From: an uncultured Solibacteraceae bacterium
Lineage (GTDB): Bacteria > Acidobacteriota > Vicinamibacteria > Vicinamibacterales > SCN-69-37
Direction of reading: 5' to 3'
DNA length: 64,000 bases
Assembly: GCA_964471115.1 (NCBI GenBank)
Contig: CAYYFE010000006.1
Location: 16,370 to 80,369, forward strand
Both the position numbers and the translations under genes were made by a program. The notes below the pieces were generated by a model. It did no database searches. It was not told the origin of the DNA and saw only the letters and a list, made by a program, of their open reading frames with translations. This document shows positions 4,015-42,056 of this stretch, piece by piece (the stretch's first letter is position 1; every line of letters starts with the position of its first letter).

Positions 4015-5553
4015 CTACTCCCACTCGATCGTCGCCGGCGGCTTCGAGCTGATGTCGTACACCACGCGGTTGATCCCGCGCACCTCGTTCACGATGCGCG
4101 ACGAAATCGTGGCGAGCAGGTCGTGCGGCAGGCGCGCCCAGTCGGCCGTCATGCCGTCCCGGCTCTCCACCGCGCGAATCGCCACCGTGTATTCGTACGT
4201 ACGCTCATCCCCCATCACGCCGACGCTCTGAACCGGCAGCAGCACCGCAAACGACTGCCACAACTTCCGGTACCACCCGGCGCGCCGCACTTCGTCGGCG
4301 ACGATGGCATCCGCGGCGCGCAGCAGGGCCAGCTGCGGCCGGGAGATCGGCCCCAGCAGTCGCACGGCCAGACCCGGCCCCGGGAACGGCTGGCGCCACA
4401 CGAACTCGTCCTCGAGCCCCAGCGTCGTGCCGAGCGCGCGGACTTCGTCCTTGAACAGTTCGCGCAGCGGCTCAACGAGCCGGAACTTCATGCGTTCGGG
4501 CAGGCCGCCGACGTTGTGATGGCTCTTGATGACCGCGGACGGACCGCGGACCGACACACTCTCGATGACGTCGGGATACAAGGTGCCCTGCGCGAGGAAC
4601 TCGAAGTCGCCCAGCGCCCGGGCCTCCGCCTCGAACACGTCGATGAACGCGGCGCCGATGATCTTGCGCTTCTGCTCGGGATCGCTGACACCCTCGAGCC
4701 GCGAGAGGAACTCATCGGCCGCATCGGCGAACACCAGATGCAGCCCGAGCCGTACGAAGCGCTCGCGCACCTGCTGCGCCTCGTTGTGGCGCAGCAGCCC
4801 GTTGTCGACGAAGATGCAGGTCAGCCGCGGGCCGATGGCCTTGTGGATGAGCAGCGCCGCGACGGTCGAGTCGACGCCGCCCGACAGTCCGCACACGACC
4901 CGCCCCTCGCCCACCTGCGCCCGGATGCGGGCCACGCTTTCCTCGACAAATCCCGCCATCGTCCAATCGCCGCGGCATCCGCAGACGCCGAACGCGAAGT
5001 TCCGCAGCAGATCGGCACCGTGTTCGGTGTGCACGACTTCCGGATGGAACAGCAGCGCGTAACACCGCCGCGTGTCGTCGTGCATGGCCGCCACGGGCGC
5101 GTTGGCCGATGTGGCGCTCACGGCGAACCCGGGCGGCGCCGCCGAGACGAAGTCGCCATGGCTGGCCCACACCCGCAGCGACGCGGGCACGCCGGCAAAC
5201 AAGGCCGAGGTCGAGCCGGCCGCGTCGACGATGGCGTGGCCGAACTCGCGGTGCGACGCCCGGGCCACCGCGCCGCCGAACTGCTCCGTCATCACCTGCA
5301 TGCCGTAGCAGATGCCGAGGATCGGCAGGCCGAGCGACCAGATGCCGGGGTCGGGCCGCGGCGCGCCCTCCTCCGACAGACTGCGCGGCCCCCCCGACAG
5401 GATGATCCCTGCGGGCGCGCGCGCGGCCAGGACGCTGGCGGGCGTGTTGAACGGGAGAATCTCCGAGTACACCGAGAGTTCGCGCAGGCGTCGCGCGATC
5501 AACTGGGTGTATTGGGATCCGAAATCGAGAACGAGGATGGTTTGATGCGTCAC
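4015..5553 (-). CDS. guaA: GMP synthase (glutamine-hydrolysing)
   Basis: GATase [19 protein letters not shown] and ICYGMQ; ATP-PPase SGGVDS; canonical C-terminus PPATIEWE. Start trimmed to GTG 5553 ([12 protein letters not shown]); the track start at 5616 remains possible. Confidence 0.93.
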
Positions 5554-5574
5554 AGGCGACCGCGGGAATCCCGA

Positions 5575-5582
5575 TATTATAA
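5575..5582. promoter_or_regulatory. AT-rich core tattataa readable as a -10 box on both strands (guaA / PQQ-propeller divergent pair)
   Basis: It is the only AT island in the 32-bp divergent spacer. Plus strand: TATTAT, 5 nt, then GTG 5586. Minus strand: TATAAT, about 22 nt before GTG 5553. Confidence 0.4.
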
Positions 5583-5585
5583 GCC

Positions 5586-6722
5586 GTGGGTCCCCGACTG
5601 CCGCCCCTGTTCGCACTGCTCTGCTGCGCGCTGACCGCCGTCACCGCGCAGGAACGCGCGGTGCCTCTGTCGCCTCTCACGCCGATCTGGTCCTCGGCGC
5701 TGCCGTTTGGAGAGTCCGTGCGTCTCATTGTCGGCGAGACGCGCCTGATCGTGGCGGCCGAGTCGCGGCTGGACGCGCTGGCGTGGGCGTCAGGCGCGCC
5801 GCAATGGAGCGCGGCGATGGCCGGCACCGCGACGCCGCTGGTGGCCGATGGCCGCGTGTTTGCCGCCGCCGACGGTCACATCGCCGCCCTGTCCGAGGTC
5901 ACCGGCCACGTGGAATGGCGCTGGCCGGCCGCCGGCGTCACGGCCCCGCTCGCGTACCGCGCGGGCTGGCTGTTCGTGATCACCGCCGACGGGAACGTGA
6001 CCGGTCTGCGCGCGGCCGATGGCGCGCCGCAGTGGACCGCCCCGCACCCGCCCGCGCGGCTGGCGGCGCCGCTCACCGTGGACGGCGACGGACTCTTTGG
6101 CGTCTTCGACGACGGCTCCCTCGTCGCCTGGCAGGTCTCGACCGGGCAGGTGCGCTGGACGACGCAGGTGGCGCCGCGGCCGGGGCAGATCCTGGCCGCG
6201 CACGGGCGGCTGTACGTGTCGGCCGGCGGGCGGCTCACCGCGTTCCGTCAACGCGACGGCCGGCCGGAGTGGTCGTTCGCCGTCAACCTGCCGGCCGTCA
6301 GCCGGCTGGCGGCCGACGCCACCCACATCTATTTCGGCGCGCTGGACAACAGCGTCCGCGCGCACCGGGAACGCGACGGCACGCTGGCCTGGAACGCCAA
6401 GCTGAGCGAACGGATCGTGGAAGGCCTGTCGGCCGATGCGGGCATGGTGCTGGTCCCGCACTCGAACGGCGCGGTGCAGTTGCTCCTGGCGACGTCGGGC
6501 CGGCGTGCCGGGACGCTGGCGTCGCCGCTGCCCGATGCGCGCGGCGCCACGCTGCTGGCCACGGCCGGCGAGGGCGCCGATCTGCGTCTGGCGCGGCTGA
6601 CGGCCGCCGACCAGTCGCGCACCATCGAGGCGTTCGCCCGGCGGACGCTGGCGGTTACCCCCGCGTCGACACTGACGGGGACGCCGCTGCCGTGGCCACC
6701 GGCGGCGCCGCCGCGTCGGTAA
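5586..6722 (+). CDS. PQQ-like beta-propeller repeat protein (BamB-like), secreted
   Basis: Signal-like N-terminus [15 protein letters not shown]. Repeated motifs of the type DG.V.A.D..TG...W ([92 protein letters not shown]). Confidence 0.55.
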
Positions 6723-8953: not shown

Positions 8954-11900
8954 GTGCTTCGACGTCCGTTCGTCATCGCGGCCCTCGGCGCCGCTCTGGC
9001 CGCCGCGGCGGGCGGTCTGACGTGGGAACGCGCGCGCTTCGGCGCGGGTCCCGCCGACGCCGGGCCGCGCCTTGAGGCGGAAGTGCGGCATCGGCTGATC
9101 GACAGCGCCGCCCGCCTGCGCGCCGTCGCCGAACGCGTCGCGCGCGATCACGCGCTGATTGCCGCGGCCACCACGGCGCCCGATCGCCGCGCCGAACTGT
9201 TCGCCGCGCTCGACGCGGCCCGCCTGCCCACCTCCCCGCTGCACGCCGTCACGTTGTACGTGCCGGATGGGTCCGGTGGCTTCCGTCTGCTGGCCTGGAG
9301 CGATGGCCCGGCGGAAGACCTCGACGCCCAGGCCGCGCTGGTGGCCGCCAGCGGCGCGCCCGCCATCGTGGTGTCGCCCGGCGCGCTGGGTCTGCGCCTG
9401 CTCGCCATCCATCCGGTGACCGACGGCAGCCGATCCATCGGCCTGGTCACGGCCGAACGGATCATCGCGCCCGGCGATCGCCTGGCCGGCACGACCGATT
9501 ACCCGCTGGTCACTGCACTGGGCGAAGTGCGCCTGTCGCCGGCCGCCGCGCCACCCACCACCGCGTACGCCATCGTCGTGAACGACGATCGCGGCCGGCC
9601 GCTCGTCCACGTCAGCTGGGATCCCGCCACGGTGGCGCAGGCGCGGACCGTCTTTCGTGGCCGGACGTGGGCCGCGGCGCTCGCGCCGCTGCTGGCGCTG
9701 GCCGTGTGGGCCGCCAGCACGTGGGTCCTGGCACGGCGGCGGCGCGCGAACGGCCCGGCGTTTGCGTTCTGGAGCGCCGGCCTGGCGCTGCTGCTGCTCG
9801 GCGCCGGGCTGGCCACACGCGCGCTGACCCAGTGGGCCTCGCTGTCGCTGGTCACGGGCCAACTGGCGGTCGCGGCGGCCGCACTCGGCGCGGCCGTGGC
9901 CTGGCCCGTCTCGTGCTGGTGGCGCGGCGTCCGCCGGCGGGCTGTCGCGCGCACGGACTGGCGGCTGCCGCTCGCGTTGATCGGCGCCGGCGCGTGGGTG
10001 GCGGTCCTGCTGGCCGGGCTCGCGTTCCTGATCGACACGCGGCTGGCGGTCGACCGGCTCGACCGCCTCGCCTCGCCGTTGTTTCCGTTCGACGCCGGAG
10101 TGTTGTGGATTCATCTGACGCGGCTCATCCTCGCGCTGGCGGCGATCTGGAGCGGGGTCACCGTTCTGGCGCTCGTTGTGGAGCGCTGGCGTGTGCAGTG
10201 GCGCGGCCGCTGGGGCGTCGCGGTGATCGCGCTGGGCAGCCTGCCTGCGGCCGCCCTGAGCGCGGCGCGCCCCTGGTGGCCGTCGGCCGAGGCGATGGCC
10301 CCGATCGTCGTGGCGGCGGCGTTGCTGCTGTCGGTCGCGGCGCTGGCCGCCGCGCCCCTGCGGCGCCGCTATCGGCACTCGACACAGTCCACGCGCCTGC
10401 TCTGGCTGTGCGGCGCCACCGTCCTGCCGGCGCTCATCATCGATCCCATCGTCTCGGTGTCGGCGCAACGCGCCACCGACACCGCGATCGAGACGGTGCA
10501 CGCGCCCGCCACGGTGGATCACCCGGCGCATCTGCTGGAGGTGCTGCGGCAGGCCACCGCGGAGATCGACGGACTCGGCGATCTCTCCGCGCTGGTCGAT
10601 CGCGCTCCCGGCGCCGCCGCGGTCACCACCGACGCGGCCTTCCGCGTATGGAGCCGCACAGGGCTGTCGCGTGAGCGGCTGACGTCCGCCGTGGACCTCT
10701 ACGGCCCCGACCGGACGCTCACGAGCCGCTTTGCGCTGAACGTCCCCGAGTACGGCTTCGATCAATCGATGATGGACCTGCGCTGCGACTGGGACATCTA
10801 CGGGGAGGTGGACCGATCCGAAGAACTCCGGATGCTGCACGCCGAACGTGGCGTCTGCGACGCCGCGGGCCGCGTGCGCGGCGCCATCGTGCTGCACGTG
10901 ATCTTCGACTACCGCGCGCTGCCGTACCTGGCGGCGCGATCGCCGTTCGACGTGCACCGGCGGCCCGAGGGCGCCGGGGCGCTGGCCGACCGGCTGCAGG
11001 TGGTGGTGTACGGCTGGAGCCGGCTGCCGCTCTTTGCGTCGGGCCCGGCCGCCTGGCCGCTCGATGATGCGCTGCTGGCGCGCCTCGAGCGCTCGCGCGA
11101 CCCGTTCTGGATCACGCGGACGACCGACGCCGGCCGCGCCCGCGTCTACTTCCGCAACGACCGCGCGGGCATCTACGCCCTCGGCTACACCGAACCCTCC
11201 GCGTTCGAACATCTGTCGCGCCTGGCCGAAACCACGGCGCTCGCGTTACTCGTCTTCGTCGTGCTCATCGCCGGCGCCAGCGCGGCCGCCGCGATCAGCC
11301 CGCCGGCGCGCGCGCCCTTCCGGGCGGTCGTCGACGAAGTGCGCACCAGCTTTTATCGCAAGCTGTTCCTGCTGTTCGTGCTGACGGCCCTGCTGCCGGT
11401 GGCCGTCCTCGCGCTGGCGTTCAGCGCCTACATGGGCGAGCAGCTGCGGTCGGACGTCGAAACCGAGGCGATCAGCGCGGCCACGATCGCGCGGCGTGTG
11501 CTCGAGGACACGATCGCCCTGCAGCAGGGGCCGCTGACCGACGACCTGATGGTGTGGATCGGCCGCATCATCAACCAGGACGTCAACGTCTACGACGGCC
11601 CTCGGCTGCGCGCCACGAGCCAGCGCGACCTGTTTGATTCGGGCGTGTTGCCCGAGCGCACACCGGCGCGCGCGTATCGGGCGGTCGCGCTCGACCGCGT
11701 GCCGACCTTCGTCGAAGAGTCGCAGGCCGGCCTGTTCACGTCCCTCGTGGCCGCCGCGCCCGTCCCGCGCCTGGGGCGGGAGGCCGTGTTGCTCGTCCCG
11801 CTCGCGCCGCGGCAGCGCGCCATCGAACGCGAGATCTCCGACCTCAATCGCGGCATCCTGCTGGGCGCCATCCTGATCGTGCTGCTGTCGGCCGGCCTCG

Positions 11901-20693: not shown

Positions 20694-20800
20694 CCCGAAG
20701 AGCATTCACAGGAGACACGGAGGGCTGGGAGGAAATGCCAGCAGGTGTTCGCACGCTCAGGGGTTGGGGCCAGGCATCGCCTGGCCGACAACGCGAAGAA

Positions 20801-20860
20801 GGGCGTCTCGGACGAACAAGCGATTGAGTGCACCGCGTGCTCGTCCGGGACGCCCTTTTT
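20801..20860. terminator. bidirectional intrinsic terminator between convergent operons
   Basis: 15-bp stem gggcgtctcggacga / tcgtccgggacgccc (one G-U) with a 25-nt loop. TTTTT follows on the plus strand and TTCTTCGCGT on the minus strand. Confidence 0.65.
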
Positions 20861-20943
20861 CGCGTGTTCGCCGCCGAAGGCGGCACCAACCCCTGAGTCT
20901 GCGGGCCTCCAGTGCCTCCAGTCCTCGTTGTGAATTTCCGCTC

Positions 20944-21666
20944 TTATCCGAGTTTGACCAGCTCGGTCCGCGCCTGCGGCACGAAGAGCGAGTCGGGGAA
21001 CTCGTCGACCACGCGCTTGAACGCGGTTTTGGCTTCGCCGCTCTTGCCGGCCTTCTGATAGGCCTTGGCCAGCTGCATCAGCACGCCGTCGACCGGCAGC
21101 ACGCCGTCACGATCGGCCGACAGTTCCTCGAGCACCTGGATGCCGCGATCGAACTGCCCGCTGGCGATGGCCGCTTCGGCCAGGCCGAGTTTGGCCGTGG
21201 CCCGGAACAAGGGACTGTCGGTCGCCGCGATGGCCGCTTCGAATCCGGTGATGGCCTCGGCGTACTTCCCGGTGGCGGCCAGCGACGCCGCGTGGTGATA
21301 CCGCGCGGCCACACCCGCCGTGGTCGACGGATACTGATCGACCACCTGCTGGAACGCCGCCAGGGCCGCGTCGGTCCGGGCCTGCTCGGTGGGATACGTC
21401 CCGGCCTGCTGCTGCGCGCCGGGCACGGTCGGAGCCGGAACGATCGGGGCGTCGTAAATCTGCATGGCCGCCGACAGCAGGGCGTCGGCCTTGGCCGCCG
21501 TCCGCCCGCTCCACCACGACCACGCACTGGCGATCACCACCACGGCCACGATGCCGACGATGCCGAAGACGATCTGATTCTTGTAGGTGCCAAACGCCTC
21601 GGTCGCCTTGGCGACCTGGATGGCAAACTCGTTCTGCTTCAGCTTATGGCGCTGCTCTGACTTCAT
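20944..21666 (-). CDS. TPR-like membrane-anchored protein, YfgM-like
   Basis: Short cytoplasmic N-terminus, one TM helix (IVFGIVGIVAVVVIASAWSWW), then a helical TPR-like domain. This is the YfgM/UPF0070 architecture. Confidence 0.5.
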   Translation of the reverse strand: MKSEQRHKLKQNEFAIQVAKATEAFGTYKNQIVFGIVGIVAVVVIASAWSWWSGRTAAKADALLSAAMQIYDAPIVPAPTVPGAQQQAGTYPTEQARTDAALAAFQQVVDQYPSTTAGVAARYHHAASLAATGKYAEAITGFEAAIAATDSPLFRATAKLGLAEAAIASGQFDRGIQVLEELSADRDGVLPVDGVLMQLAKAYQKAGKSGEAKTAFKRVVDEFPDSLFVPQARTELVKLG

Positions 21667-21687
21667 AACCCTGCGAGTTTATCGCAA

Positions 21688-21807
21688 GTGGCGGCGGGTG
21701 GCGGCAAGTCGCGGCGAGTGGCGGCAAGTGGCGGCGGGTGGTGGTAAGTCGCGGCGGGTGGCGGCAAGTCGCGGCAAGTGGCGGCGGGTGGCGGCAGGTG
21801 GTGGCGA
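21688..21807. repeat. 12 tandem copies of a 10-bp unit GTSGYGGYRR
   Basis: Read directly: gtggcggcgg gtggcggcaa gtcgcggcga gtggcggcaa gtggcggcgg gtggtggtaa gtcgcggcgg gtggcggcaa gtcgcggcaa gtggcggcgg gtggcggcag gtggtggcga. Confidence 0.95.
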
Positions 21808-21810
21808 GTA

Positions 21811-21887
21811 TGGTGCGCCCGGACCGATTTGAACGGTCGACCCCCGCCTTAGGAGGGCGGTGCTCTATCCAGCTGAGCTACGGGCGC
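21811..21887 (-). tRNA. tRNA-Arg (anticodon CCU), CCA encoded
   Basis: Manual cloverleaf: GCGCCCG/CGGGCGC acceptor, GCUC/GAGC D stem, CCGCC-CUCCUAA-GGCGG anticodon arm, GACCG-UUCAAAU-CGGUC T arm, then A-CCA. Confidence 0.93.
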
Positions 21888-21896
21888 TTCCGACGC

Positions 21897-21966
21897 TGGG
21901 CGACTGGCGGCTGCCGGCCGCTACTTGCGGCCACTCGCCGCGACTTGCCGCCACTCGCCGCGACTC
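21897..21966. repeat. about 7 tandem copies of the reverse complement of the 10-bp unit (inverted partner array)
   Basis: ..ctacttgcgg ccactcgccg cgacttgccg ccactcgccg cgactc. Positions 21943-21965 are a perfect 23-nt complement of 21707-21729. Confidence 0.9.
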
Positions 21967-22482
21967 TCAGTACGCTAGCACCGCATTGACCCGTTCGTGC
22001 GCCAGTTTGGCGCGGCCGCCCAGGGCCAGCAGTTCAATCAGGAACTGGACGCCGACGACATCGGCCCCGAGGCCGCGGACCAGCCCGACGGTTGCCGAGG
22101 CCGTGCCGCCCGTTGCCAGCAGGTCATCCACCACGAGCACCCGCTGGCCCTTGGCGATGGCGTCCTCGTGAATCTCGAGCGCGTCCGAGCCGTACTCCAG
22201 GTCGTAGCTGGCGCGCACCGTGGTGTGCGGCAACTTCCCCATCTTGCGCACCGGCGCGAAGCCCGCGCCGAGGCGGTCGGCCACGGCGGCGCCGAAGATG
22301 AACCCGCGGCTTTCGATGCCCACCACCAGATCCACGGGCTGGCCGACGTAGGGCGCCGCCATCGCGGTGACCGCCTCGCGGAAACCACCGGGGTCCTTCA
22401 TCAGCGTGGTGATGTCGTAGAACAGAATGCCGGGCTTCGGAAAGTCCGGCACGTGGCGGATGTGCGTCTTGAGGGAATCCAT
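21967..22482 (-). CDS. apt: adenine phosphoribosyltransferase
   Basis: HIRHVPDFPKPGILFYDIT, GIESRGFIFG, PRPP motif VLVVDDLLATGGTA. Confidence 0.93.
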   Translation of the reverse strand: MDSLKTHIRHVPDFPKPGILFYDITTLMKDPGGFREAVTAMAAPYVGQPVDLVVGIESRGFIFGAAVADRLGAGFAPVRKMGKLPHTTVRASYDLEYGSDALEIHEDAIAKGQRVLVVDDLLATGGTASATVGLVRGLGADVVGVQFLIELLALGGRAKLAHERVNAVLAY

Positions 22483-22486
22483 GAAC

Positions 22487-22575
22487 GGTCCAGGGTCCAG
22501 GGTCCGGGGCCCAGGGTCCAGGGCCCAGGGTCTTAAGTGATCCCTGAGCCCTGAGCCCTGTGCCCTGTGCCCTGA
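22487..22575. repeat. inverted arrays of a 7-bp unit (CAGGGYC x6 / GCCCTGW x5) forming a periodic ~30-bp hairpin
   Basis: cagggtc cagggtc cggggcc cagggtc cagggcc cagggtc - ttaagtga - tccctga gccctga gccctgt gccctgt gccctga. Hand pairing gives five 5-6-bp helices separated by single mismatches. Confidence 0.9.
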
Positions 22576-28316: not shown

Positions 28317-29735
28317 TCACTGCCAGACCATCAGGCGGTCGTGCGGACGGGCCGCATACTGCGCGGCCTGGGCACGGGCGCGTGTTTGTTCCGCGCCCCG
28401 CCACGCCCGCGGGCGCAGGTCCACCACCACCGTGCGGCCGGCGGCCTGATGAGCATCAAGCACCGCCGCGAGGTCAGCCGGCCAGGACCACCCGGGGCAC
28501 ACCGTCTGCCAGCGGCCCTCGGGTAACGCCGCCGTCGGCTCACGCCGAACCTGCTCCTTGATCAGGCCCACGGCCGGACAGGCGTGGCCGGTCACGATCA
28601 CCGCATCGGCCGGTACCGACGCCAGGCGTTCTGCCATCGCGCGCGACACCTCCAGCCACGGGCGCTCCGCGCGGTGCACGACCACTGTTGCGATCGCGAT
28701 GGGCAGCAGGAACCCGACAACCCATGCCGCGCGCCGCCTCCCGAGGGCCGCCGCGGCCGGCAGAGCGACGGCGGTCGGCAGCGCGATGAGCAGATACCGC
28801 GGACTGTAGGTCACACCGTGGTACGACGCCATGACGGCCAGGACGAGCCACGACGGCAGGACCAGTGTGCTCCACCACGCCCCCTCACGCATCCGCACAC
28901 TCCACATCGTCAGCATCACGCCCACTGGAGACAATGCGACCAGCCATCCGGCGATGAGTCCCAGTTCCCGCGCGCCCCACTGCTGCAGTGCGCGGTCGTG
29001 CGCCATGCCCGCGCGCCAGTTGACGATGGTCTCGGTATATCCCGGCTGCACCGTCCAGGCCCAGACCATCGGGACCACGACACACAACACCGTGGCCACG
29101 CCGGCGGACAGCAGCAGGCGGATTCTTCGCACGGGCTCGGTTCGCCAGAGCGCGAACGCCACCACGATGGCCATCACGATTGCCGCTTCGCGCAGGCCGG
29201 CGGCCAGGCCGAGCCACACTCCGGCCGACGCGGCGTCGCGCGCGCGCGTTGTGCGCGCGGCGCGCACCGCCCAGAACACCGCCAGGACGACGAAGGGGAC
29301 GGTCGGACCGTCGGTGAGGACGGCGAAGCCGCTGTGCGCGAGCGCCGGTGACGTGGCGACCAGCGCGCCGGCGAGCAGCGAGGCGCGGCGATCGAATCCG
29401 AGTTCCCGCGCCAGCGCCCACGTGGCCGGCGCGGCGAGCGCGGTGAGCGCCAGGCACACCCAGCGCAGGACGGGTTCGAGGTGCCACACCGACCCGCCAA
29501 TCCCCTGCCACCCGGCCGCGACGGCCTGGCTCAGCGCCGCGAATACCGGCCGGCCAAAGCCAAGCCCGCCCACCTCACCCGTCAGCGCCTGAGTGACGTA
29601 GCCGAACGAATCCCAATACACCGGCCCCCACGACCCGACGACCAAACCACACGCCACGGTCAGCGCCCACAGGGCGCCCGCGGCTCCGCGGCCGCCAGAG
29701 CCGGCCGCGCTACGACCCCCTCGCCATCTCGTCAT
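28317..29735 (-). CDS. GT-C-fold membrane glycosyltransferase-like protein (DUF2723/TMEM260-like)
   Basis: About 11 TM helices. The first-loop motif VYWDSFGY..GGLGFGRPVF resembles the W-DSGE..PPGYPL signature. The only start compatible with TM1 is ATG 29735, which lies inside the 8-bp repeat array, so the start is uncertain. Confidence 0.5.
   Translation of the reverse strand: MTRWRGGRSAAGSGGRGAAGALWALTVACGLVVGSWGPVYWDSFGYVTQALTGEVGGLGFGRPVFAALSQAVAAGWQGIGGSVWHLEPVLRWVCLALTALAAPATWALARELGFDRRASLLAGALVATSPALAHSGFAVLTDGPTVPFVVLAVFWAVRAARTTRARDAASAGVWLGLAAGLREAAIVMAIVVAFALWRTEPVRRIRLLLSAGVATVLCVVVPMVWAWTVQPGYTETIVNWRAGMAHDRALQQWGARELGLIAGWLVALSPVGVMLTMWSVRMREGAWWSTLVLPSWLVLAVMASYHGVTYSPRYLLIALPTAVALPAAAALGRRRAAWVVGFLLPIAIATVVVHRAERPWLEVSRAMAERLASVPADAVIVTGHACPAVGLIKEQVRREPTAALPEGRWQTVCPGWSWPADLAAVLDAHQAAGRTVVVDLRPRAWRGAEQTRARAQAAQYAARPHDRLMVWQ
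29684..29714 (+). repeat. dispersed hairpin-GCTACG element, copy A (31/31 identical to 37241-37271)
   Basis: ctccgcggccgccagagccggccgcgctacg. Stem gcggccg/cggccgc. Lies inside the predicted 5' coding end of the GT-C gene. Confidence 0.85.
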
Positions 29736-29803
29736 CTTGCCATCTCGTCATCTCGCCATCTCGTCATCCCGTCGCTCGCCACCTCGCCATCTCGCCACCT
29801 GTT
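29717..29803. repeat. about 11 tandem copies of the 8-bp unit CAYCTCGY
   Basis: cccctcgc catctcgt catcttgc catctcgt catctcgc catctcgt catcccgt cgctcgc cacctcgc catctcgc cacctgtt. Confidence 0.9.
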
Positions 29804-37240: not shown

Positions 37241-37271
37241 CTCCGCGGCCGCCAGAGCCGGCCGCGCTACG
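37241..37271 (+). repeat. dispersed hairpin-GCTACG element, copy B
   Basis: ctccgcggccgccagagccggccgcgctacg, identical to 29684-29714. Starts 5 nt after the SSF stop. Confidence 0.85.
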
Positions 37272-37276
37272 CATTT

Positions 37277-37308
37277 CACCGCGCCACCTCGCCACCTCGC
37301 CACCTATT
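37277..37308. repeat. 4 tandem copies of the 8-bp unit CACCKCGC
   Basis: caccgcgc cacctcgc cacctcgc cacctatt. The last unit overlaps the TerC stop codon (37304-37306). Confidence 0.85.
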
Positions 37309-41982: not shown

Positions 41983-42000
41983 GGGCGACGGGGCATGTAG

Positions 42001-42056
42001 GGCGGCCCGCTCTACGGGCCGCCGCAATCGCGGCCGGAAGCCCCGGCCGCGCTACG
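42001..42056 (+). repeat. REP-like double hairpin, including copy C of the hairpin-GCTACG element
   Basis: ggcggccc-gctctac-gggccgcc followed by cgcggccgg-aagc-cccggccgcgctacg. Confidence 0.7.

Follow-up and report, generated by a model that had tools for sequence, protein, structure and literature searches.

Inverted tandem-repeat arrays around a tRNA-Arg(CCU) gene and the intergenic array hairpins of Vicinamibacterales

Intergenic arrays of tandemly repeated heptamers have been described in different bacterial groups. In cyanobacteria, the STRR families are 7-bp intergenic tandem repeats that occupy many loci, can form hairpins and have been proposed to act in transcript stability or coupling (PMC2670836). 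The GGGNATC heptamers of Xanthomonas and Nostoc lie no more than about 50 bp from stop codons and between open reading frames (ORFs) that are aligned, and show depletion between divergent ORFs as well as in coding sequence (PMC4692102), while the TAACTGA repeats of Beggiatoaceae form abundant intergenic heptamer arrays (PMC4679880). Roles in termination and mRNA stabilisation have also been hypothesised for GTAG-tagged repetitive extragenic palindromes (REPs), which are hairpin-forming elements of another kind (PMC3733652). Here, we describe a 64,000-nucleotide stretch of DNA from an uncultured Solibacteraceae bacterium of the order Vicinamibacterales (the window), in which a tRNA-Arg(CCU) gene, located between apt and a yfgM-like gene, is bracketed by inverted arrays of a 10-bp tandem repeat. 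The initial annotation of the window knew of no described element like this, which was an overstatement in view of the heptamers of cyanobacteria, Xanthomonas and Beggiatoaceae. As for the order itself, no papers linking Vicinamibacteria to intergenic tandem repeats were found, which, given the limited literature coverage, is a weak sign of novelty. The YfgM-like protein places the organism in Vicinamibacterales, within Acidobacteriota, and the locus was compared with 80 orthologous loci from GTDB species representatives. Loci and contigs of relatives are designated below by numbers preceded by L.

The bracketed tRNA-Arg(CCU) gene

In the window, whose GC content is 69%, the three genes follow each other on the minus strand. 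The upstream gene is the apt ORF (21967..22482; PF00156 and source names), which encodes an adenine phosphoribosyltransferase and has its stop codon at 21967-21969; the tRNA-Arg with anticodon CCU occupies 21811..21887 according to both ARAGORN and Rfam (RF00005, 66.5 bits); and the downstream ORF (20944..21666; PF09976 and source names), with its ATG at 21666-21664, encodes a YfgM-like TPR_21 membrane protein of 240 aa. Both spacers, of 79 nt between apt and the tRNA and of 144 nt between the tRNA and yfgM, are occupied by repeats, as delimited by Tandem Repeats Finder (TRF) on the minus strand. The short arm (21897..21966), built of the reverse-complement unit, begins in RNA sense immediately after the apt stop codon and represents the tRNA leader; its clean part amounts to 5.0 copies (21917-21966), and two decayed units, identified in a unit table, extend it to 21897, from where a 9-nt spacer leads to the tRNA. 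The long arm (21684..21809) follows the tRNA after 3 nt, fills the spacer towards yfgM with 12.6 copies of the 10-bp unit and represents the tRNA trailer. G makes up 43% of the leader, which is thus G-rich, and the C-rich trailer contains 55% C and 20% G. This layout agrees with the initial annotation, which had placed the tRNA-Arg at the same positions and strand, between the end of apt and the start of the co-oriented YfgM-like gene, with 12 copies of the unit on one side and about seven inverted copies on the other. Its two statements on complementarity are exact as well: 21707-21729 and 21943-21965 are complementary over 23 nt without a mismatch, and 32 of 34 positions pair between 21747-21780 and 21932-21965.

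The inverted-array bracket around the tRNA-Arg is real and above chance. The long arm scores better in TRF as 6.3 copies of a 20-bp higher-order unit, and an alternating unit of this length, AAGTCGCGGC+GRGTGGCGGC on the plus strand, is common to both arms. The 20-mer has eight matches in the window, all at the tRNA-Arg locus, compared with 0.08 expected, and neither a recurring 10-mer nor a second copy of the unit was found elsewhere in the 64 kb. An assembly artefact was considered and is ruled out by independent assemblies from two studies. Indeed, the apt-array-tRNA-array sequence was recovered in independent Logan assemblies of ERR3494953, ERR3494954 and ERR3494961; in that of ERR3494947 the contig stops inside the tRNA. 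The Logan contigs break inside the long array, as expected of short reads, and several of the short-read contigs recovered end within or beside such arrays, as do the short contigs returned by exact-protein look-ups with apt, which end in or near arrays. In a different study (SRR8741053), the relative L085, with 93% YfgM identity, carries a 10-mer array upstream of yfgM that differs by one unit, and it is the only relative with such an array. For the YfgM-like protein, the exact-protein look-up returned no exact match on record, and a metagenome scan yielded distant relatives only (at most 46% identity) and nothing informative for the locus.

When the minus strand of 21660-21990 was folded, the predicted geometry was the one put forward in the initial annotation, namely a leader-trailer clamp with the tRNA cloverleaf retained at its tip. 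In the minimum free energy fold of the sense strand (-170.6 kcal/mol, z -6.6), an uninterrupted helix of 24 bp is prolonged by an imperfect extension. The leader-trailer duplex alone reaches a dG of -124.6 kcal/mol, compared with -73.7 +/- 5.4 for shuffled sequences (z -9.4), and three registers, 20 nt apart, offer 24-25 consecutive pairs each. The antisense strand folds better (-212.1 kcal/mol, z -9.0), because the GGG units of the long arm make G.U pairs there and C.A mismatches in the sense RNA. Among 72 tRNAs from the Vicinamibacterales data set, whose leader-trailer duplex energies were calculated with 60-nt flanks, the window tRNA-Arg is the sole outlier (z -3.9; median z 0.03), and no leader-trailer pairing was detected at the other 71, none of which has a z below -2.2. 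Over the locus, the tRNA alone passes the gathering threshold of Rfam; with the limit relaxed to E<=1, matches of the arrays and hairpins are confined to generic miRNA-precursor models and score far under threshold.

The initial annotation had seen no promoter between the genes, and a consensus scan likewise found neither a sigma-70-like promoter nor an intrinsic terminator among the three; a -10-like hexamer, TAAACT (21676..21681, minus strand), does precede yfgM, in the interval that separates the long arm from the ATG. This box, a putative promoter element, is identical in L085 and agrees with the TACACT/TAAACT hexamers found upstream of yfgM in closer relatives. TTGCCG motifs in the long arm were considered as -35-like partners and rejected, as the nearest lies 20 nt from TAAACT, beyond sigma-70-type spacing. 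Many relatives also have a -10-like box 10-25 nt upstream of the tRNA, which has no counterpart in the window. With regard to termination, tRNA-Pro(CGG), in the segment 31403-31563 of the window, has a canonical hairpin and T-run terminator, followed by two copies of a 24-bp tandem repeat that starts at a CGCGCTACG motif; thus the genome uses intrinsic terminators, yet none follows tRNA-Arg. In the convergent region downstream of yfgM (20700-20950, minus strand), nested long-range helices are predicted (-151.5 kcal/mol, z -10.7), which match no Rfam family and could be a complex terminator or a non-coding RNA.

Tandem arrays in the intergenic regions of the order

The focal arrays belong at the edge of a larger set, a lineage-wide class of intergenic tandem-array hairpins in Vicinamibacterales with a strong tendency to inverted pairing. 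TRF was run on the window and the 80 loci (1.38 Mb; periods of 5-24, at least three copies) and returned 128 arrays, 87 of them intergenic by an ORF heuristic based on GC content at third codon positions (GC3). Periods of 7 (n=45) and 8 (n=20) make up 65 of the 87 intergenic arrays, while in most coding arrays the period is divisible by 3. For 31 of the 87, an inverted partner (score of at least 36) lies no further than 350 nt away, compared with 0/87 in the reversed and 0/87 in the complemented controls; about two thirds of the intergenic arrays are unpaired. At a score of at least 30 there are 25 unique inverted pairs, most of which begin 0-30 nt past a stop codon, with gaps between the paired arms mostly of 3-60 nt. 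Arrays are borne by 16% of convergent (16/100), 12% of tandem (33/275) and 7.5% of divergent (8/107) intergenic regions, as estimated from heuristic gene calls and small counts. The order thus carries arrays of roughly 6-9-nt units at many intergenic loci and avoids them in coding sequence, as described heptamer classes do, with the 10/20 period of the focal locus at the class edge. Phased protein binding, which had been suggested because 10 bp equal one helical turn, is not supported as a class property, since the periods are mostly 7 and 8.

The units of these arrays are not drawn from one or a few fixed sequences, as they vary by locus within one contig (for example in the window and in L050) and between orthologous spacers. 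In the window, an inverted heptamer pair at 22487-22575 (minus strand; CAGGGCW / CCCTGGR in RNA sense, or (GGTCCAG)n and then (TGAGCCC)n) was identified by TRF and folding as a hairpin. It occupies the whole spacer between apt and a sortilin/BNR-like gene of 1073 aa, and 4 nt separate its end from the apt ATG. The same spacer contains inverted arrays in related contigs of four lineages (L006 and L007; L010 and L013; L020; L121-L124), while L008 and L015 have a plain hairpin there; the units differ (CAGGGCW, GGTGCYG, GGTCCGT, GGTTCAT, GGTTCCTG and others) while the arms remain complementary. The region downstream of yfgM shows the same unit-varying behaviour in about a dozen loci.

No tRNA-specific association of the arrays was found among 76 tRNAs: seven have an array within 80 nt, compared with about 12% of intergenic regions carrying one. 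Sequences other than tRNAs are also enclosed between inverted arrays, including about 250 nt with a putative small minus-strand ORF, read by eye, in L022 (10742-11101), a conserved 125-nt insert with a terminator-like hairpin in L039 (13740-13922) and L040 (13761-13943), and about 80 nt in L050. No Rfam family was found for the inserts between array pairs in L010, L011, L022 and L039.

Other arrays of the window, (CTCGCCAC)n as identified by TRF at 488-529, 29720-29797 and 37277-37305, are C-rich on the plus strand whatever the gene orientation. Two identical 27-nt copies of a REP-like hairpin, GCGGCCGCCAGAGCCGGCCGCGCTACG, with a CTAC end (GTAG on the other strand), lie at 29688-29714 and 37245-37271, and each precedes an 8-bp array (CTCGCCAY)n; the array at 488-529 has no REP. 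Four of the five CTAC ends in the window adjoin a tandem array. Seeding of arrays at REP CTAC ends, possibly via a REP-associated transposase, was considered on this basis and rejected as a general mechanism, as it holds for 4/5 window sites but for only 3-6 of the 87 arrays across the order. The focal arrays themselves are not of the REP/BIME type, as their units are non-palindromic and the 10-mer is locus-unique in the window. At 41997-42056, two close REP-like hairpins with GTAG/CTAC ends stand in inverted orientation (BIME/REPIN-like), with no tandem array after them.

Orthologous loci and the origin of the bracket

The tRNA-Arg(CCU) lies upstream of yfgM within 900 nt in 45 of the 80 loci and within 1.5 kb in 51, and apt is usually found upstream of the tRNA-Arg in relatives. 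Eleven relatives are compact, with the arrangement apt-(6-20 nt)-tRNA-(15-53 nt)-yfgM; the tRNA shares the strand of its neighbours, and the spacers are too short for signals of its own. As these relatives leave no room for separate promoters or terminators, the ancestral unit was tightly packed and co-oriented, and the tRNA-punctuated operon proposed in the initial annotation gains comparative support. In the group with 87-89% apt identity, the apt-tRNA spacer measures 12 nt in L122 and 86 nt, without 10-mers, in L123 and L124, and in L006 and L007 (about 75% YfgM identity) the spacers are non-repetitive. Indeed, apart from the array of L085, all orthologous loci compared lack both the arrays and any leader-trailer pairing; loci without arrays include L006, L007, L122 and L123 and the more distant L012 and L020. 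Their absence from close relatives had been named beforehand as an outcome that would speak against the significance first given to them, and it is the outcome that was found. The suggestion of a conserved processing stalk of the RNase III type is contradicted by this absence and by the lack of pairing at the 71 other tRNAs, and is further weakened by the occurrence of similar arrays throughout the order, about two thirds of them unpaired. The pairing is neither conserved nor co-varying among orthologous loci, and the long helix is thus not a conserved, rRNA-like processing signal.

Rearrangements and other repeats are also seen at this position in relatives. In L006 (2303-2379) and L007 (9525-9601), which belong to the same clade, the tRNA-Arg and its flanks, including a TATGGT -10-like box, are oppositely oriented between apt and yfgM; this inversion is evolutionary, is bounded by short inverted repeats and indicates that the locus does rearrange within the lineage. 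In L013, a tRNA-Arg 3' fragment of about 40 nt and, after it, the 8-bp array (CGAAGTCC)n adjoin yfgM (9870-9990), and the intact tRNA is located about 8 kb upstream (1592-1668), which looks like an att-site duplication from a tRNA-integrated element. A conserved, internally complementary element of about 105 nt (CGCGGGTGACGCCGAACGGGGC...GGGGCTGTTCGGCGGCAGGACCCGCC) is present upstream of yfgM in L010, L011 and L021 (approximate coordinates L010:4365-4470 and 5480-5640, L011:495-610, L021:9800-9900) and has no Rfam match; in L010, the element recurs in inverted orientation upstream of the tRNA, and the two copies bracket the tRNA and 1.1 kb. In the tRNA-yfgM spacer of L039 (9607-9950), a 57-nt REP-like unit (…GAGCTACGGCTGGCAAGCCAGG…) is repeated six times in tandem, and single or partial copies of it are found at the same position in several other lineages (L055, L056, L066, L070).

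The symmetry of the arms could have been shaped on the DNA or on the RNA. In 12 inverted pairs located between co-directional genes, the arm mismatches show no sense-strand G.U bias (wobble-compatible in 8 cases on the sense and 17 on the antisense strand), and only 4 of the 12 are more stable on the sense strand; the focal locus shows the same reversed asymmetry, with the antisense strand more stable. There is no signature of RNA-level selection in this small sample, with which an RNA function is still compatible. Since one higher-order unit is common to both arms, and G.U pairs are not tolerated in a strand-specific way, the array process probably acts on DNA, and it looks as if arm symmetry were maintained there by slippage together with template switching, gene conversion or inversion. 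In addition, the array units nearest the tRNA in the window are similar to the spacer of L007, which is non-repetitive; this similarity suggests that amplification took place in situ.

Collectively, these data show that the locus belongs to a lineage-wide array-hairpin class and represents a species-level novelty at a tRNA of syntenic position. On balance, we favour its interpretation as a species-level elaboration of this class, in which the tRNA is held in a hairpin loop and the arms are co-transcribed, serve as an RNase III substrate and are tolerated or mildly useful. Starting from a compact apt-tRNA-Arg(CCU)-yfgM unit, a 10-bp unit with a 20-bp higher-order repeat would have been amplified in inverted orientation on both sides of the tRNA, probably in place, by slippage and inverted copying or recombination between the arms, leaving the tRNA in the loop of a hairpin. 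If apt, tRNA and yfgM are carried in one transcript, the G-rich leader and the C-rich trailer would pair over 24-25 consecutive positions, or about 50 bp if mismatches are included, and the folded tRNA would sit at the tip. The helix would then behave as the other hairpins of the class may do, forming a hairpin at the 3' end of apt, and RNase III would find a substrate in it. Its cleavage by this enzyme, which is plausible, would separate the apt mRNA, the pre-tRNA and the yfgM mRNA, and would be followed by ordinary RNase P processing and 3'-end trimming. Such an arrangement would be tolerated or mildly useful, with no requirement for tRNA maturation.

Some points weigh against this interpretation. 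Most of the loci compared derive from metagenome-assembled genomes, and genes were called by the GC3 heuristic (coding fraction 0.66), so that intergenic classes and distances are approximate. A period of 10 is atypical, the two focal arrays being the only ones with this period among the 87. The antisense strand outfolds the sense strand, and the C.A mismatches on the sense RNA argue against optimisation of the sense transcript. Finally, the window tRNA alone of the 76 is bracketed on both sides, and chance capture is not separable from selection here.

One alternative is that the arrays were selected for an RNase III-cut helix, as in 16S and 23S rRNA, which excises the tRNA and sets the ends or the stability of the mRNAs. 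It would account for the long predicted helix with a cloverleaf at its tip and is consistent with the co-transcription that the compact relatives imply, with the lack of a detected promoter or terminator between the genes and with the missing counterpart of the relatives' -10-like box upstream of the tRNA. Nevertheless, a dedicated role of this kind is unlikely: leader-trailer pairing is lacking at about 50 orthologous tRNA-Arg loci and at other tRNAs, the arrays are missing at 87-89% apt identity, and the sense RNA, with its C.A mismatches, folds worse than the antisense, in line with the class-wide absence of a sense wobble bias.

Another possibility, that the arrays have no consequence at the RNA level, is also unlikely. 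Here, the tRNA and yfgM would have start sites of their own, the arms would never be part of one RNA, and the spacer would be neutral and similar to a variable-number tandem repeat. In its favour are the conserved TAAACT box just downstream of the long arm, before yfgM, the patchy presence of arrays across lineages and the large unpaired fraction of the class; however, no promoter-like site is found upstream of the tRNA, and both the excess of inverted pairs over the controls (31/87 versus 0/87) and the persistence of the hairpin at orthologous spacers despite the turnover of units are hard to explain by neutrality alone.

It is improbable that the locus is an invertible DNA cassette that flips the tRNA segment, or that its layout is the product of an inversion with a breakpoint inside a single former array. 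The opposite orientation of the tRNA and its flanks in L006 and L007 makes inversion conceivable, and a block of 23 nt is perfectly identical between the arms, which is close to the shortest length that permits RecA-dependent exchange; the occurrence of one 20-bp higher-order unit in both arms would also be explained if a single array had been split by an inversion. All independent assemblies of the species, however, show one orientation, L006 and L007 have no arrays and hence needed none for their inversion, and the flipping of a tRNA would have no obvious regulatory output.

We give very little credence to the proposal that Rho loads onto the trailer and thereby restricts read-through into yfgM, with the leader able to mask the site by pairing, or that the arrays are phased protein-binding sites. 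The 127-nt trailer is indeed rich in C and poor in G for a genome of 69% GC, no intrinsic terminator follows tRNA-Arg although canonical ones are used elsewhere, and the array period equals one helical turn, but the other arrays of the class have periods of 7-8 and either strand composition relative to transcription, and the 10-mer does not recur elsewhere in the window. Finally, the mobile tRNA cassette considered in the initial annotation is rejected, together with an assembly artefact, since the arrays are formally terminal inverted repeats around a small cargo but the tRNA is syntenic between apt and yfgM in 45 of 80 relatives without any terminal repeats, neither insertion polymorphism nor copies elsewhere, as expected of miniature inverted-repeat transposable elements (MITEs) or cassettes, were found (no other copy of the unit in the window), and the array sequence is present in independent assemblies from two studies.

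Significance and relation to described systems

The bracketed tRNA alone is a curiosity of one species and a close relative. The array class concerns an abundant, little-studied soil order, with hundreds of predicted intergenic heptamer or octamer arrays per genome, about a third of them in inverted pairs. If the hairpins are terminators or RNA-processing sites, they would help explain how 3' ends are formed in high-GC bacteria with few canonical terminators, and they would offer a natural system for studying the joint evolution of hairpin arms; the arrays could also serve as strain markers. A terminator role is plausible, since hairpins without U-tracts have been reported to terminate transcription in high-GC Streptomyces (PMC2602773). 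A bolder proposal is that the order has a genome-wide, hitherto undescribed system of self-renewing array hairpins, whose arms stay complementary as the units turn over and which serve at gene 3' ends as U-tract-independent terminators or RNase III sites; in this species, one pair would have been recruited to form a stalk of the rRNA type, by which tRNA-Arg(CCU) is cut out of an apt-tRNA-yfgM precursor. This proposal is unlikely.

Like the cyanobacterial STRR, the arrays of Vicinamibacterales are intergenic and short in period, mostly of 7-8 bp, and they often pair into hairpins. Each genome with STRR families has a small number of fixed unit sequences, whereas the units described here are locus-specific and orthologous spacers swap the unit yet keep the hairpin; the focal arrays differ further in their 10/20-bp period and in enclosing a tRNA gene. 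The positional trends of the Vicinamibacterales arrays, estimated from heuristic gene calls and small counts, point in the direction of those of the GGGNATC heptamers, but the GGGNATC and TAACTGA repeats are each dominated by one unit and have been proposed to act through a G-quadruplex or protein binding, while the units here are diverse and inverted pairing is recurrent. Like REPs and BIMEs, the arrays are intergenic, placed at gene 3' ends and hairpin-forming; REPs, however, are single palindromes of 20-40 bp with near-identical dispersed copies, the arrays are tandem series of non-palindromic, locus-unique units, and adjacency to CTAC/GTAG ends is not general in the order. The arrays of the order thus stand apart from the described elements in two respects, their locus-specific, turning-over units and their frequent inverted pairing.

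The position of the tRNA, on the same strand as two protein genes and packed between them (spacers of 6-20 and 15-53 nt in relatives), recalls tRNA-mRNA co-transcription units, of which thrU-tyrU-glyT-thrT-tufB of E. coli is an example; to our knowledge, no such unit has long complementary repeat arrays flanking the tRNA. For the clamp itself, the closest functional analogy is the RNase III stalks of 16S and 23S rRNA, in which complementary leader and trailer sequences enclose a stable RNA within a polycistronic precursor through a helix of more than 20 bp; the geometry predicted here, with 24-25 pairs around the tRNA, is of the same kind. The analogy fails with regard to conservation, as rRNA stalks are conserved and co-varying, whereas the helix around tRNA-Arg is built of fast-evolving repeats and is absent from every orthologous locus tested.

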